Positions 13,615 to 17,506 of a stretch of DNA of 32,810 nt are shown one piece after another. The DNA is taken from NCBI GenBank assembly GCA_043765655.1, contig JAYUIW010000015.1, positions 1-32,810 on the forward strand, given 5' to 3'. Numbering within the stretch: the first letter of the stretch is position 1; the number at the start of each line of letters is the position of its first letter. The DNA comes from a bacterium. Lineage in GTDB: Bacteria > Patescibacteriota > JACMRA01. The translations under genes and the position numbers were made by a program. The notes under the pieces were generated by a model that worked only from the letters and a program-made list of their open reading frames with translations, ran no database searches and was not told where the DNA came from.

Positions 13615-15783
13615 ATGTTCAAAAAAATCTTCCTCTCAACCCAAAACTTTTTCCAAAGAATATTATCTTGGTTACTGAGATTCCCGCCAATTCGATGGTT
13701 GGTTAACATTCTCAAAATCTTCTGGAGAATTCTGGTTCCAGTGTTATTAATAGGATTATTAGTAGTTCCAATTGTCTTGACTTACTTTCCTGCTGGCAAA
13801 AAAACTGTGAATCTCAACGTTCCCAAATTAATCACCAAGGGTGATGTTGTCAAAAAAATCTCGGTGCAAGCTGTAGTTGAGAATAGTTATAGCTACGATC
13901 TTCCAGTCTACCAAGACGCCGAACTCAAGGAAGTTTTTGTTAAGCAAGGCGACCAAGTTACGGCTGGACAAGTTCTGGCATCGCTGGAATTCGTGAATGA
14001 GAATAAAGTGCGATCCACAGATGTTCAAAACCAAATTAATTCGTATCTCACAGATATCAGCAATCAACAAGAAGCTCTTGGGAATACTTTGAATAGTAAT
14101 TATGCCACTCTTAGTCAGCAGGATATTAATGTCAAAAATAAAGTCGACGAATGGAATCAAATCAACCAAAAAAGAATCGACAAAATCAATGAAAACCACG
14201 AAAAAAAATCTCGTTACGACTCGGAGCGAATCGACTTCCAAAAACAATATGACGAACTGGATAGTCGAAAAGTTGTTGATAATTCGGTCAAACAATATGA
14301 AGATCAACTCAAACTAAAACATGATCAACTGACAACTGGGAATTCTGGAAGTAGCCAAATTCAAAGTCAAATCAACACTGTAGAATCGCAGATTAGTGGT
14401 TTCAAAACTACTCTTGGATTAAGTTCCTCCCAAAGCTGCTCTAGTTATGTGTATGTAATTCCAAGCTCTACCACAATCTCTTCGACTTTTGCTTCTTCTA
14501 GTTCGAGTTCAGCTTTGCCCAATCTTACTTCAACCAAGGATCAATGTCTTTTGGCAGAAAAAAACCTAAACGAGCTTAGGGTTCAACAAAATGTAGCCAA
14601 TAATAATACTAATGTTAGTGTAAATACTTTGAACAATGATATTAATGACCTCCAGAATAAGATTAATATTCTCAAAAAAGATCCAAGTTACACTGGCAAC
14701 AAGCCAACAATTACCGACCAACTCAATGACTCTCAAATCGAAATCAAAAAAGGAGATTTGAAGTCAAAAATCACAACTCGCGAAAACGATATCAAACAAA
14801 TTGATAATTCTGTAGAAGTCAAAAACCTTGAAGAACAGCTCAAAACAATCGATCGTGGAATCTCGGATCTTTTGGCTCAGCAACAAGTCAGCCAACAAGG
14901 ATTAGAAAGTACCAAGGACTCAGTTCTCCAAAGAATTCGCTCAGCGCAATCCTCACTGGAAGGCTCCCAAAGCAAACTCAATGATATTATCGAAGATATT
15001 AACAAACAAGAAAAAAACAAAACTCTAGTTGCCAAAAAAGACGGAATTGTAGGTAAAGTCAACAAGGAACAAGGTTTGGTTCTCAACGCTCGAGAAGTAG
15101 AGTTCACAATCGTTAGTCCCGACCAAAGGCTCAAATTCACAGTTAATGCCGACAACAAATCCCAAATTAAAAAGGGAATGAAGGTTAATACTGACAAATA
15201 TAAAGACATTGAAAATATTGTGGTTACAGATGCCAATCTTATTCCCAACACTCTAGCGGTTGGAGCTACGGCAAGTACAACCCTAGAATATGATGTCTTC
15301 GCTAATCTTCCCAAAAGCAATAAATACAACTATACTCAAGGCGAATCGGTTAATATCGATGTAATTATTGACCAAAAAAAAGATGTTCTCAATGTTCCAT
15401 TCTCGGCCGTTCTAGAGAATAAAGTATATGTGGGAACGGGTGTAGAATTACCAAAAGGCAAAAAAATTAAAACTAATTCAAACAGTACTTCAAGTTCGAA
15501 CGCAAATGACTTTATCATTGTTGATGAAGATGAAACTAAGTTTGAAGAAATCAAAACTTCTACCAGCTCAAGTTCGTCCAAAGGAGCAGATCAAGCTGCT
15601 AGTCAATTAGTCGGTGTTAAATTTACAGCTTTCAAAGAAGTTAAGATTGAAACTGGCTTGAATGATGGTCGTAATATTGAAGTTCTTAGCGGTTTGAATT
15701 CTGGAGATTTTGTATTCATTATTTATCCCAAGACTGATGCCGAAAAAAAGCAATTGGAAGCCGAGTATCTTGTTAAGAAGTAA
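13615..15783 (+). CDS. MacA/HlyD-like efflux adaptor with very long coiled coil
   Basis: TM; VFVKQGDQVTAGQVLA and LVAKKDGIV lipoyl half-motifs; C-terminal IETGLNDGRNIEVLSGLNSGD. Confidence 0.85.
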   Translation: MFKKIFLSTQNFFQRILSWLLRFPPIRWLVNILKIFWRILVPVLLIGLLVVPIVLTYFPAGKKTVNLNVPKLITKGDVVKKISVQAVVENSYSYDLPVYQDAELKEVFVKQGDQVTAGQVLASLEFVNENKVRSTDVQNQINSYLTDISNQQEALGNTLNSNYATLSQQDINVKNKVDEWNQINQKRIDKINENHEKKSRYDSERIDFQKQYDELDSRKVVDNSVKQYEDQLKLKHDQLTTGNSGSSQIQSQINTVESQISGFKTTLGLSSSQSCSSYVYVIPSSTTISSTFASSSSSSALPNLTSTKDQCLLAEKNLNELRVQQNVANNNTNVSVNTLNNDINDLQNKINILKKDPSYTGNKPTITDQLNDSQIEIKKGDLKSKITTRENDIKQIDNSVEVKNLEEQLKTIDRGISDLLAQQQVSQQGLESTKDSVLQRIRSAQSSLEGSQSKLNDIIEDINKQEKNKTLVAKKDGIVGKVNKEQGLVLNAREVEFTIVSPDQRLKFTVNADNKSQIKKGMKVNTDKYKDIENIVVTDANLIPNTLAVGATASTTLEYDVFANLPKSNKYNYTQGESVNIDVIIDQKKDVLNVPFSAVLENKVYVGTGVELPKGKKIKTNSNSTSSSNANDFIIVDEDETKFEEIKTSTSSSSSKGADQAASQLVGVKFTAFKEVKIETGLNDGRNIEVLSGLNSGDFVFIIYPKTDAEKKQLEAEYLVKK

Positions 15784-15797
15784 AAAAAATAAACCAA

Positions 15798-16196
15798 ATG
15801 ATTTATATTAAAAACTTTTTGGATTGGTTCACACTAAAACCAAAACTCGATAATCAGTTAGTCAAACCTCCACAATTCAGTGAAGGTCAAGTTTGGTGGT
15901 GTTTTTGTGGAGAAAATATAGGAGTTGAAGTTAGTGGAAAAGGAAAAGACTATTTAAGACCATTTTTAATATTTACAAAACTAGACAAATTTAGCTTTGT
16001 AGCTATTCCTCTGAGTACGAAAATAAAAGTTGGTTCTTGGTATTTTCAAATCAAATTCAAGAATATTGATCAAATTATAATGTTAAATCAGATTAAGTTT
16101 TTTGATTATCGTAGATTGAATTATAAGTATGGTGAAATAACAAAACAAGAACATGAAAGTGTTAAAAAAGCTATCAGACTATTGTTAAAAATATAA
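15798..16196 (+). CDS. PemK/MazF-family endoribonuclease-like protein, no protein antitoxin adjacent
   Basis: GQVWWCFCGENIGVEVSGK..YLRPFLI, AIPLSTK, LNQIKFFDYRRL. Confidence 0.82.
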   Translation: MIYIKNFLDWFTLKPKLDNQLVKPPQFSEGQVWWCFCGENIGVEVSGKGKDYLRPFLIFTKLDKFSFVAIPLSTKIKVGSWYFQIKFKNIDQIIMLNQIKFFDYRRLNYKYGEITKQEHESVKKAIRLLLKI

Positions 16197-16244
16197 AAAA
16201 ATAACCCTTCTATTACTAGAAGGTCGCGGGTAATTCCCGAATAC
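16194..16244 (-). ncRNA. Predicted ~50-nt small RNA convergent on the pemK-like gene
   Basis: Downstream of a consensus promoter; hairpins CGGG-AAUUA-CCCG and CCUUCUA-GUAA-UAGAAGG, then a U-tract. Confidence 0.5.
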
Positions 16245-16250
16245 ATATTA

Positions 16251-16279
16251 ATTTTACTATAAAGAATAATTCTTGTCAA
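16251..16279 (-). promoter_or_regulatory. Antisense sigma70 promoter inside the efflux operon
   Basis: TTGACA (16279-16274), 17 bp, TAAAAT (16256-16251); no minus-strand gene nearby. Confidence 0.7.
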
Positions 16280-16326
16280 ATACAAATATATAATAACTAA
16301 TAATTTAGTTTAATCCTCCCAACAAT

Positions 16327-17037
16327 ATGACTACAATTAATCCAACCAAAGCCCAACCAATAATCCAGTTCAAAGGTGTACAAAAATACTATATCGTTGG
16401 CAAAGAACAACAGTTAGTTATCAAGGGCGTCGATGTAAATATTATGCGCGGCGAAACTGTGGCTCTGCTGGGTAAATCTGGCTCAGGAAAGAGTACAATG
16501 CTCAATATTCTGGGGCTTTTGGACTTTCCGACCAGTGGAGAATACTTGCTCAATGGGGTTAATGTATCAGGATTCGACGATAATCAGAGATCTGAGATCC
16601 GCAACAAGACTTTTGGTTTTATATTCCAGCAATTTAATCTTTTGCCAAAACTCAATGTAATTGACAATATAACCGCTCCACTTTATTACAACTCCGATAA
16701 GTCCAAGTGGCACAACCGCAAAGAAATTGCTTTAGAACTTCTAGCAAAGTTTGATATCGAAGAACAAGCCTACAAACTCCCCAAGCTCCTCTCTGGTGGA
16801 CAACAACAGCGTGTGGCAATGGCAAGATCGCTAGTTAATGACTGCGATATAATAATCGGAGATGAGCCAACTGGAGCATTGGACTCCAAGACCACTGACC
16901 AAGTTATGGCGGAGATCTTTCGGCTTAATACCGAGTTTGGTAAGTCGGTTATCTTCGTAACTCACGATGATGATCTTGCCAAAAAATTCAGTCGGATTAT
17001 TCGCTTGAAAGATGGAGTTATCGTTGATGAATTTTAA
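16327..17037 (+). CDS. ABC transporter ATP-binding protein (MacB/LolD-like)
   Basis: GKSGSGKST, LSGGQQQRVAMAR, IIGDEPTGALD, VTHD. Confidence 0.96.
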   Translation: MTTINPTKAQPIIQFKGVQKYYIVGKEQQLVIKGVDVNIMRGETVALLGKSGSGKSTMLNILGLLDFPTSGEYLLNGVNVSGFDDNQRSEIRNKTFGFIFQQFNLLPKLNVIDNITAPLYYNSDKSKWHNRKEIALELLAKFDIEEQAYKLPKLLSGGQQQRVAMARSLVNDCDIIIGDEPTGALDSKTTDQVMAEIFRLNTEFGKSVIFVTHDDDLAKKFSRIIRLKDGVIVDEF

Positions 17038-17039
17038 TC

Positions 17040-17110
17040 AATTACTAATTTCTAATTACGAATTACAATTGCTCTTCGTTTTAATAACAAATTTCCAATT
17101 ACGAATACGA
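17040..17110 (+). repeat. Degenerate heptamer array (AATTACG-like)
   Basis: AATTACT AATTTCT AATTACG AATTAC ... AATTTCC AATTACG. Confidence 0.75.
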
Positions 17111-17137
17111 CTAATTTTAACAATAATTTTTAATACT

Positions 17138-17506
17138 ATGAAAGAGAATATAATCCAACAAAAAACTTATAGCTTTGCTTTAGAAATAATTCAATTGTAT
17201 AAAACCTTAACCAAACAAAATGAATACATCCTCTCTCGGCAAATTCTAAAATCAGGGACTTCGATTGGTGCCAATATTGAGGAGACAATTGGAGCTTATA
17301 GTACAGCAGAATTTTTATCAAAAATTTCCATATCGTACAAAGAAGCAAGGGAAACACATTATTGGCTTAGACTTTTAAAAGATTCAGGATATATCGAAGA
17401 ATCGTTATTCAAAAAACTAATTTTTGATTGTGATGAAATTTTTAAAATTATTGGCAAAATACAAATTACAACAAAAGCCAACCAAAAAGAATTAAAAAAA
17501 TCTTAG
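17138..17506 (+). CDS. Four-helix-bundle protein (23S rRNA IVS protein-like family)
   Basis: LSRQILKSGTSIGANIEE, FLSKISISYKEARETHYWLRLL; ATG 17138 preferred. Confidence 0.92.
   Translation: MKENIIQQKTYSFALEIIQLYKTLTKQNEYILSRQILKSGTSIGANIEETIGAYSTAEFLSKISISYKEARETHYWLRLLKDSGYIEESLFKKLIFDCDEIFKIIGKIQITTKANQKELKKS

Follow-up and report, generated by a model that had tools for sequence, protein, structure and literature searches.

A MazF/PemK-family toxin gene of a Patescibacteriota genome is accompanied by a conserved, convergent small RNA gene, a candidate antitoxin

The stretch of DNA analysed here (hereafter the window) comprises 32,810 nucleotides (nt), contig JAYUIW010000015.1 of assembly GCA_043765655.1, from a bacterium of the phylum Patescibacteriota, and its element of interest is a toxin gene of the MazF/PemK type together with a predicted small RNA gene that converges upon its 3′-end from the opposite strand (Table 1). 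The toxin gene, an open reading frame (ORF) of 132 amino acids (aa), sits within what looks like a MacAB-type transporter operon: 14 nt separate it from an upstream gene of 722 aa (HlyD-like) and 130 nt from the next gene, an ABC ATPase, beyond which lie a 23S_rRNA_IVP four-helix-bundle gene and then a permease. None of the ORFs flanking the toxin gene in the window is fit for an antitoxin role, and the 130 nt downstream hold no ORF. An earlier note on this DNA had described a MazF/PemK-like toxin lacking a neighbouring protein antitoxin, and both halves of that description are borne out, the one by a Pfam match (see below) and the other by the flanking ORFs.

On the minus strand just downstream of the toxin gene there is a promoter (16279-16251) that agrees with the consensus at 11 of 12 positions, followed by two hairpins and a U-tract (16239-16195). 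The 5′-end of the predicted RNA falls near G16244 (16244-16246) and its 3′-end lies in the U-run overlapping the stop codon: the final two bases of this run (16201-16195) overlap the toxin TAA. The earlier note had pointed to the TTGACA-17-TAAAAT promoter, to the hairpins – the second with a GNRA loop – and to the U-tract reaching the stop codon, and we found all of these; its further claim, that the terminator suits the minus strand only, agrees with our scan of the window, in which no plus-strand terminator-like site appeared at the RNA region. By themselves, these promoter and hairpin signals are not above chance. The scan returned 23 promoter-like sites against 19.9 ± 4.3 in shuffled sequence and 4 terminator-like sites against 3.8 ± 2.2, while the fold of the RNA (-14.2 kcal/mol, z-score -1.63) was equalled by 16 of 200 shuffles. 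Significance comes from comparison.

Table 1. Features of the toxin and small RNA locus, in coordinates of the window
Feature	Position	Strand	Basis
MazF/PemK-family endoribonuclease toxin gene (predicted), with subfamily-specific N-terminal helix	15798..16196	+	ORF, Pfam, AlphaFold2, Foldseek
-35 hexamer TTGACA	16274..16279	-	exact in 46/57 unique related modules
-10 hexamer TAAAAT, 17 nt after the -35	16251..16256	-	TTGAC[ATG]-17-[TC]AnnnT in 44/57 modules
Predicted small RNA, ~49 nt	16195..16244	-	promoter and terminator position; conserved and covarying in homologous loci
Hairpin A, CGGG-AAUUA-CCCG	16227..16239	-	fold; covariation in 54-RNA alignment
Hairpin B (terminator stem), CCUUCUA-GUAA-UAGAAGG, GNRA loop	16206..16223	-	terminator scan and fold
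3′ tail GUUAUUUUUUU, last bases complementary to the TAA stop	16195..16205	-	direct reading, terminator scan

Of 24 other genomes in the same family 15 hold the toxin, each with up to eight copies; a query with the single protein found it in none of the 16 genomes that were taken as samples of other families in the phylum. After removal of four duplicate loci we examined 34 tblastn matches from 16 genomes, and behind 32 of them a minus-strand -35 element stands at the expected place, the layout being that of promoter, two hairpins and tail. The two exceptions are an intact gene without the module (locus L027) and a gene cut by a contig end (L028). In the 46 related modules with an exact TTGACA this hexamer stands at a fixed spacing of 17 nt, and hairpin B carries a GNRA loop in 31 of the 45 modules that RNAfold resolves into two hairpins. 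The hairpins also covary. When 26 RNAs are aligned with MAFFT alone, all nine pairs predicted by RNAalifold carry compensatory changes; in a model-fitted alignment of 52 matches (A4), which leans towards structure by construction, the covariation score is 0.396 against 0.213 ± 0.014, a value that none of 500 shuffles reached. The check that the earlier note had proposed – whether homologues share a downstream promoter and covarying hairpins – thus gave a positive answer. As to strand, the comparison of folding energies gives a weak signal, the minus sense being the more stable in 36 of 54 modules (p 0.017), and G-U pairs in the related modules, 20 in the minus sense and 23 in the plus sense, show overall no strand bias.

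A protein profile built from 27 family members extends this distribution, placing the toxin in 55 of 401 sampled genomes of the phylum (49 of 319 genera), and the module is visible in most of the distant same-phylum loci found by the profile. A single-protein word search returned 2 proteins and an alignment search 144; the subfamily numbers 501 clusters at E ≤ 1e-30 among 1.84 billion representative proteins. From a pattern scan of species genomes we obtained 80 distant loci, among them loci of Verrucomicrobiota, Rickettsiales and other Alphaproteobacteria, Gammaproteobacteria, Trueperaceae, Saprospiraceae, a Bdellovibrio-like family, Ardenticatenaceae and many lineages of Patescibacteria. Because the model made for the window's own family (R1) is too narrow for these, with 20 matches at E ≤ 1, they were analysed by promoter anchoring and folding, the RNA start being set 7 nt after the -10 of the best downstream minus-strand sigma-70-like site. 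The -35 reads TTGAC[ATG] in 51 of the 80 loci, and a leader of sequence ACAAAU lies exactly at the predicted +1 in 29 and within 1 nt of it in 33, spanning lineages of the candidate phyla radiation (CPR), Rickettsiales, Verrucomicrobiota, Trueperaceae and others.

Most of the distant loci have a 4-bp hairpin A and then a G+C-rich hairpin B, with the U-tail often absent. Hairpin A is often GGC-UUCG-GCC, hairpin B is closed by GNRA or UUCG loops, and the linker repeatedly shows motifs such as CCGAG and CACG; the toxin stop codon falls within the loop of hairpin B in several loci of Rickettsiales and Patescibacteria. A strict scan for the two-hairpin layout was positive at 64 of the 80 loci in the RNA sense; read in the opposite sense 28 loci were positive, and of the 80 upstream control regions 16. 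When an A-rich leader was required as well, the counts became 36 in the RNA sense versus 1 in the opposite sense and 1 in the upstream control. In a structure-blind MAFFT alignment of 54 RNAs (A6) hairpin A is paired in 89.4% of cells and all four of its pairs are compensated, with a covariation score of 0.62; shuffles give 0.15, none of 500 attaining the observed value, and sliding the pairing partners gives no more than 0.18. Proteins offer nothing comparable: the largest homologous group among 374 neighbouring ORFs extends to 4 of the 80 loci. Comparison of sequences thus indicates that the convergent small RNA is a real, conserved and structured gene linked to the toxin, and that it is the toxin's only conserved partner. 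For these two reasons an antitoxin role is the natural reading of the RNA, and we think it probable, by whatever mechanism the RNA may act. A different reading of the -35, in which its complement TGTCAA would be a plus-strand -35 of the downstream gene, was rejected: a -10 stands at 16, 17 or 18 nt in 2, 5 and 1 of 51 loci, no enrichment over other offsets.

The protein is, from sequence and structural modelling, a predicted endoribonuclease of the MazF/PemK family with an extra helix at its N-terminus. It matches Pfam PF02452 (PemK_toxin) over residues 30-130 (29.1 bits against a cut-off of 23.1, E 1.2e-6), and the family profile matches both S. aureus MazF (E 1.6e-7) and B. subtilis EndoA (E ~1e-7). 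The AlphaFold2 model (pLDDT, its mean confidence, 86.5) consists of a helix at residues 3-20, itself modelled with a confidence of 67-74, the SH3-like barrel of MazF and Kid, and a C-terminal helix; the best Foldseek matches are all MazF/EndoA/MoxT structures (probability 1.00, TM 0.6-0.75), with S. aureus MazF, B. subtilis YdcE/EndoA and B. anthracis MoxT the closest neighbours. Within the alignment of 27 family members W10, G38, N40, G42, E44, G47, R54, P55, D103 and R106 are invariant and F7 and K77 nearly so, and HMMER aligns R54-P55 with the R-P of S. aureus MazF. Residues 73-75 read S-T-K, at what we take to be the place of the catalytic threonine of MazF. Passages of one published account name Arg28 and Thr51 as the catalytic residues of MazF (PMC8086154).

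How might such an RNA restrain such an enzyme? Antisense control in the manner of type I systems ranks first among the mechanisms on the present comparative data, with a probability of roughly 0.4; binding of the RNA to the protein ranks second, and the two are not exclusive. Under antisense control the toxin gene, having no promoter of its own, would be read through from the upstream host gene, while the RNA of ~50 nt would be a constitutive product of the opposite strand, where it has a near-consensus sigma-70 promoter of its own. The predicted RNA is perfectly complementary to the toxin transcript from the stop codon onward, and in many relatives to the last codons as well. The target would probably always be present on the toxin transcript, because no plus-strand terminator-like site lies there and because in several relatives the downstream gene follows within ~15 nt. 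Pairing would then create a duplex of ~50 bp to be cut by RNase III – an enzyme encoded in this genome – leaving the toxin message open to decay from its 3′-end, and should synthesis of the labile RNA cease, expression of the toxin would follow. What we infer here is that the RNA is transcribed, that the protein is toxic and is neutralised, and that RNase III takes part; a look-up of RNA sequencing runs holding positions 15600-16500 of the window listed none, an outcome that speaks neither for nor against expression. The arrangement of the copies suggests that transcription runs through the cassette: regions upstream of the toxin copies are not conserved and many copies start less than 40 nt from a co-directional gene, several downstream genes begin 5-15 nt past the module, and the window has no plus-strand terminator-like site there.

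The layout has clear precedents. What defines type I is an antisense RNA that is encoded in cis, has a promoter to itself and overlaps the transcript of the toxin, and at the level of sequence prediction this is what the locus holds. In the convergent, 3′-overlapping type I systems exemplified by yonT/SR6 of B. subtilis the RNA is likewise cis-encoded, has its own promoter, is directed towards the toxin gene and overlaps it at the 3′-end, and the toxin likewise lies on a longer transcript; txpA/RatA, bsrG/SR4 and par of E. faecalis are further systems of this kind. Their toxins, however, are small hydrophobic peptides, and the hydrophobic membrane toxin that is typical of type I, if not universal, has as its counterpart here a soluble RNase of 132 aa with the MazF fold. 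The RNA is also only ~50 nt long, and among type I antitoxins it is unusual to see structure and leader conserved across phyla. In the case of symE the overlap with SymR is at the 5′-end of the gene. Enzyme-type toxins restrained by small antisense RNAs are nonetheless known, excerpts of the literature describing both SymE/SymR and RalR/RalA in these terms; RalA, by the same excerpts, is trans-encoded with 16 nt of complementarity, and neither SymE nor RalR is given there as a MazF-family toxin with a convergent 3′ RNA.

Several observations weigh against this explanation. Overlap between the RNA and the coding sequence of the window amounts to just 2-3 nt, and across 26 loci no cognate-specific complementarity was found between the RNA and either the toxin start region or the body of the ORF: the cognate pairing has a median rank of 13 (start region) and 12 (ORF) of 26, and permutations reach the cognate mean in 1230 and 378 of 2000 cases, respectively. 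Any translational block would therefore be indirect. Conservation of the ACAAAU leader and of hairpin A across phyla exceeds what pure antisense pairing needs, and the window's own hairpins are not significantly more stable than shuffled sequence. The intact homologue L027 (genome G008) lacks the RNA module, as does a variant on a C. coli plasmid, and the module also occurs as orphans and behind unrelated genes – a Schlafen/AlbA_2 gene, a 173-aa ORF and an adenylate cyclase, once each.

The conservation of the leader leads directly to the second mechanism, which the earlier note had suggested. There the RNA would bind the MazF-like dimer itself, as in type III systems but in a new layout, its single-stranded 5′ leader mimicking a substrate within the RNA groove while hairpin A adds affinity; situated at the extreme 5′-end, the motif may lack the upstream nucleotide needed for cleavage, and the extra N-terminal helix would be an added RNA-binding surface. 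Conservation beyond base pairing – the ACAAAU leader and linker motifs recurring across phyla – argues for such binding, as do the marking of the subfamily by a helix with invariant W10 and near-invariant F7 and the minimal overlap of RNA and ORF in the window. The leader moreover contains ACA/UACA, the MazF core, and an AAAU resembling the AA^AU of ToxN: passages of PMC7781912 name ACA/UACA as the core that MazF of E. coli, B. subtilis and D. radiodurans recognises and AA^AU as the ToxN site, and describe ToxN and AbiQ as MazF homologues with extra residues that bind their RNA. Yet the leader of the window's own RNA is GUAUUC, not ACAAAU, and within its family leaders vary among UAUWY, ACAWWU and UAAUUU types. 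Their link to protein subgroups is weak: 10 of 11 UAUWY leaders accompany toxins without a K[FY]N motif and 4 of 7 ACAWWU leaders toxins with it, a pattern suggestive at best as it is confounded by ancestry. Repeats, signs of processing and a pseudoknot, all of them known from type III RNAs, are missing here, and the same RNA type stands once behind the unrelated Schlafen-like gene. On balance we hold direct binding to be somewhat unlikely as the primary mechanism.

Comparison with ToxIN and AbiQ/antiQ shows both likeness and difference. What is shared, on the evidence of passages in PMC7781912, is the MazF-type endoribonuclease fold, neutralised by an RNA in ToxIN and AbiQ and there provided with extra RNA-binding residues. 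ToxI and antiQ, however, are tandem repeats of 34-36 nt, placed upstream on the same strand with a terminator before the toxin gene, and are processed by the toxin into pseudoknots; here the RNA is single and non-repeated and lies downstream on the opposite strand behind its own promoter. The gap upstream of the toxin in the window is 14 nt; no repeat array was found, only four chance two-copy rows, and neither ToxI nor any other Rfam family matched, in keeping with the earlier note's contention that the layout departs from that of ToxIN. Of that note's interpretation, a toxin with a conserved convergent RNA partner in a layout other than that of ToxIN has stood; its suggestion of protein binding is not established, antisense control being at least as likely and the layout being that of classic type I systems. 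A bolder formulation joins the two – a widespread, so far unclassified class of toxin-antitoxin (TA) system in which a MazF RNase with an N-terminal helix would be neutralised by a protein-binding, convergent RNA of ~50 nt that presents a recognition motif (often ACAAAU) at an uncleavable 5′-end beside a clamp hairpin, type III-like in mechanism and type I-like in layout, carried as a promoterless read-through cassette in at least a dozen phylum-level lineages – and this we rate as unlikely, a shade more so than direct binding alone.

The remaining copies in the same genome bear on the question of function. With a covariance model built from relatives we found nine RNA modules in the 1.05-Mb assembly (84 contigs, designated C here; 35% G+C). 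Five adjoin toxin paralogues, one (the second in C41) adjoins a C-terminal toxin remnant, that of C38 adjoins a toxin gene cut by an insertion-sequence-like repeat, that of C39 stands behind a 380-aa Schlafen/AlbA_2 protein, and that of C64 is an orphan. Three of the five paralogues are intact, namely those of the window (C15), C20 and C31/C44, the last being a single gene divided by a contig break; the C41 paralogue has an in-frame TAG inside the conserved FLDW motif, and that of C56 (locus L005) is frameshifted by a 19-nt tandem triplication, the unit AAGATTCGTTTGAAAACCA standing ~3 times in tandem within the toxin ORF at about 1760-1816 of L005. The paralogous proteins are 37-49% identical, save for 58% on a 39-aa fragment at the end of C31, and every one is followed by the same RNA arrangement despite this low identity.

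Decay of the toxin does not carry the RNA with it. Five of the 34 toxin frames in the family fail the intact-gene filter, L028 because it is cut by a contig end and the other four because they are broken by stops or a frameshift; all four broken frames keep the RNA, as do gene remnants. Such retention is expected if loss of the RNA is lethal while the toxin is active. Matches of the model away from known toxin genes were checked at 11 places: two lie behind intact toxins (in a previously unsearched genome), two behind toxin remnants, five are orphans or degenerate copies, and the remaining two stand behind the 173-aa ORF and the adenylate cyclase.

Orphan modules and modules beside unrelated genes are also what would be expected were the RNA no antitoxin at all but a housekeeping part of a mobile cassette – an element for 3′-end formation, stability or insulation, or a recombination site with DNA hairpins – with the toxin controlled otherwise or not toxic. 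The cassette is indeed multi-copy (5 toxin genes and 9 modules in 1.05 Mb) and occupies variable sites. At the site of the C20 cassette a congener holds a different ORF, of 59 aa, between the same two genes, an indication that small accessory genes have a hot spot here; on either side of the C56 copy stands a 45-nt direct repeat (about 1428-1472 and 1975-2019 of L005), which may be the footprint of an insertion; and family members occur on plasmids of Campylobacter, Helicobacter and Nitratiruptor and in CJIE4-type prophages of Campylobacter. For the window's own cassette the empty-site comparison was uninformative, the congener's ABC ATPase having a different upstream context. What a DNA-level site has difficulty in explaining, however, is a consensus promoter at fixed spacing. 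The conserved TGTCAA is not a plus-strand -35 of the next gene. The stable GNRA and C(UUCG)G tetraloops, too, are special in the RNA sense only, arising in the minus sense alone, and G-U pairs possible only in the RNA sense are seen by eye in two loci (L039 and L026), albeit with an overall count free of strand bias. We regard a housekeeping element as improbable.

Less probable still is neutralisation of the toxin by a protein: its own N-terminal helix could be a cis-antitoxin tethered to it, on the model of EzeT, or the inhibitor could be a host protein encoded elsewhere, on the model of MrpC and the solitary MazF-mx, with the RNA only fine-tuning expression or being unrelated. The helix is specific to the subfamily, solitary toxins with tethered or unlinked antitoxins have precedents (in passages of PMC4803016), and L027 shows that an intact homologue can stand without the RNA. 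At 20 residues, though, the helix is small for an inhibitory domain and is modelled with the limited confidence given above; there is no conserved protein neighbour; and retention of the RNA beside the toxin across phyla, and after the toxin has decayed, would be left unexplained. The genome's only MazE/AbrB-like domains belong to two VapBC pairs elsewhere, type II pairs of an AbrB/MazE-like antitoxin with a PIN-like toxin (C78:478-1258 and C13:2938-3604), from which it follows that this genome does use protein antitoxins for other toxins. Both this possibility and the housekeeping element explain less than do antisense control and protein binding.

A possible precedent for the antisense reading comes from Campylobacter. 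Shen et al. (2016, Mol Microbiol 101:909) are said to have described a type I pair, cjrA/cjpT, on plasmid pVir of C. jejuni. The pVir of strain 81-176 encodes a homologue of the toxin (WP_011117588; 33% identity over 106 aa including the N-terminal helix, E 1e-15; E 5e-17 by tblastn with a family member) that is the only annotated TA toxin of the plasmid and is followed by two hairpins in the antisense direction; copies in Nitratiruptor and H. suis likewise have two downstream hairpins. That pVir carries an experimentally validated type I antisense RNA antitoxin, CjrA, is stated in passages of PMC7826846 and PMC10470494. The family may thus already have one studied member in cjrA/cjpT, if CjpT is the MazF-family gene of pVir. 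Beyond citations of Shen et al. 2016, a search of full-text literature found no MazF/PemK toxin with a convergent small RNA; the supplements of the pemK motif paper and the TADB entry for cjrA, which could bear on novelty, fell outside that search.

MazF toxins are textbook members of type II, defined by a protein antitoxin, and annotation often lists "solitary" MazF genes as orphans, with no control mechanism assigned to them. Compared with MazEF and PemIK the present toxin has the same family and fold, but no MazE or PemI gene and an extra N-terminal helix; PADLOC returned no match for it or for the Schlafen-like protein of C39. The RNA is no less distinct. Rfam gave only two chance snoRNA matches in the window region and, on 20 distant loci, tRNAs and chance matches but no family for the RNA. 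The pemK motif (RF02913), a structured RNA, small at 61 model positions, whose name reflects its association with pemK genes, found no match in the window region (E ≤ 10), the 20 distant loci (E ≤ 1) or the whole genome (E ≤ 1). That motif lies in 5′ untranslated regions of Firmicutes genes. Passages of a preprint class it as cis-regulatory (10.1101/2021.11.03.467129).

The module is most likely a variant of known RNA-antitoxin systems, with an RNA family that no Rfam model matches. Its interest lies in the linking of one whole MazF subfamily to a conserved small RNA gene instead of a protein, in an RNA family new to Rfam models, in the explanation it may offer for many orphan toxins, among them the multi-copy cassettes of symbiont genomes of 1 Mb, and in the clean system it provides for asking if an RNA inhibits a MazF-fold enzyme by pairing, by binding, or by both.

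A number of smaller observations attach to these loci. The Schlafen/AlbA_2 gene behind which the C39 module stands (L042 1147-2289) lies between an NAD-kinase-like gene and rsmH, is found in one of 26 family genomes, that of the window, and encodes a protein whose end, ...KQKN*, falls in the A-run belonging to a complete RNA module; perhaps it took the place of a MazF-like gene, of which the last codons and the RNA were kept. The 45-nt repeat at C56 takes in TTGTCAA, a -10 of sequence TAGAAT and 8 nt from the start of the downstream gene, so that the C56 toxin would use a copy of its neighbour's promoter and start codon. The 59-aa ORF of the congener that corresponds to the C20 site is on the minus strand at about 2745-2925 of L095 (G001:C6). 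A sequence of ~100 nt ending ...GGTGGGYTAGGTATA stands at 11 contig ends (C3, C5, C8, C11, C27, C38, C42, C54, C59, C67 and C73) and is probably one end of an insertion sequence whose many copies break up the assembly; the toxin gene of C38 is truncated by it just ahead of the RNA module.

Toxin start codons in the ~30 loci examined have no Shine-Dalgarno-like purine run before them, and in the window the motif that precedes the start of the ABC ATPase gene is CCTCC rather than GGAGG (16300-16326); the translation-initiation signals of this lineage may be unusual. Two of the distant loci have tRNA genes within ~350 nt of the module (L133 975-1046 and L179 1908-1979), and these could mark integration near tRNA genes. 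In the operon of the window, finally, the 23S_rRNA_IVP gene (PF05635, E 2e-28; 17012-17506, plus strand) lies between ATPase and permease and overlaps the end of the former; in a congener the permease directly follows the ATPase, and the gene looks like a second small insertion in the operon.

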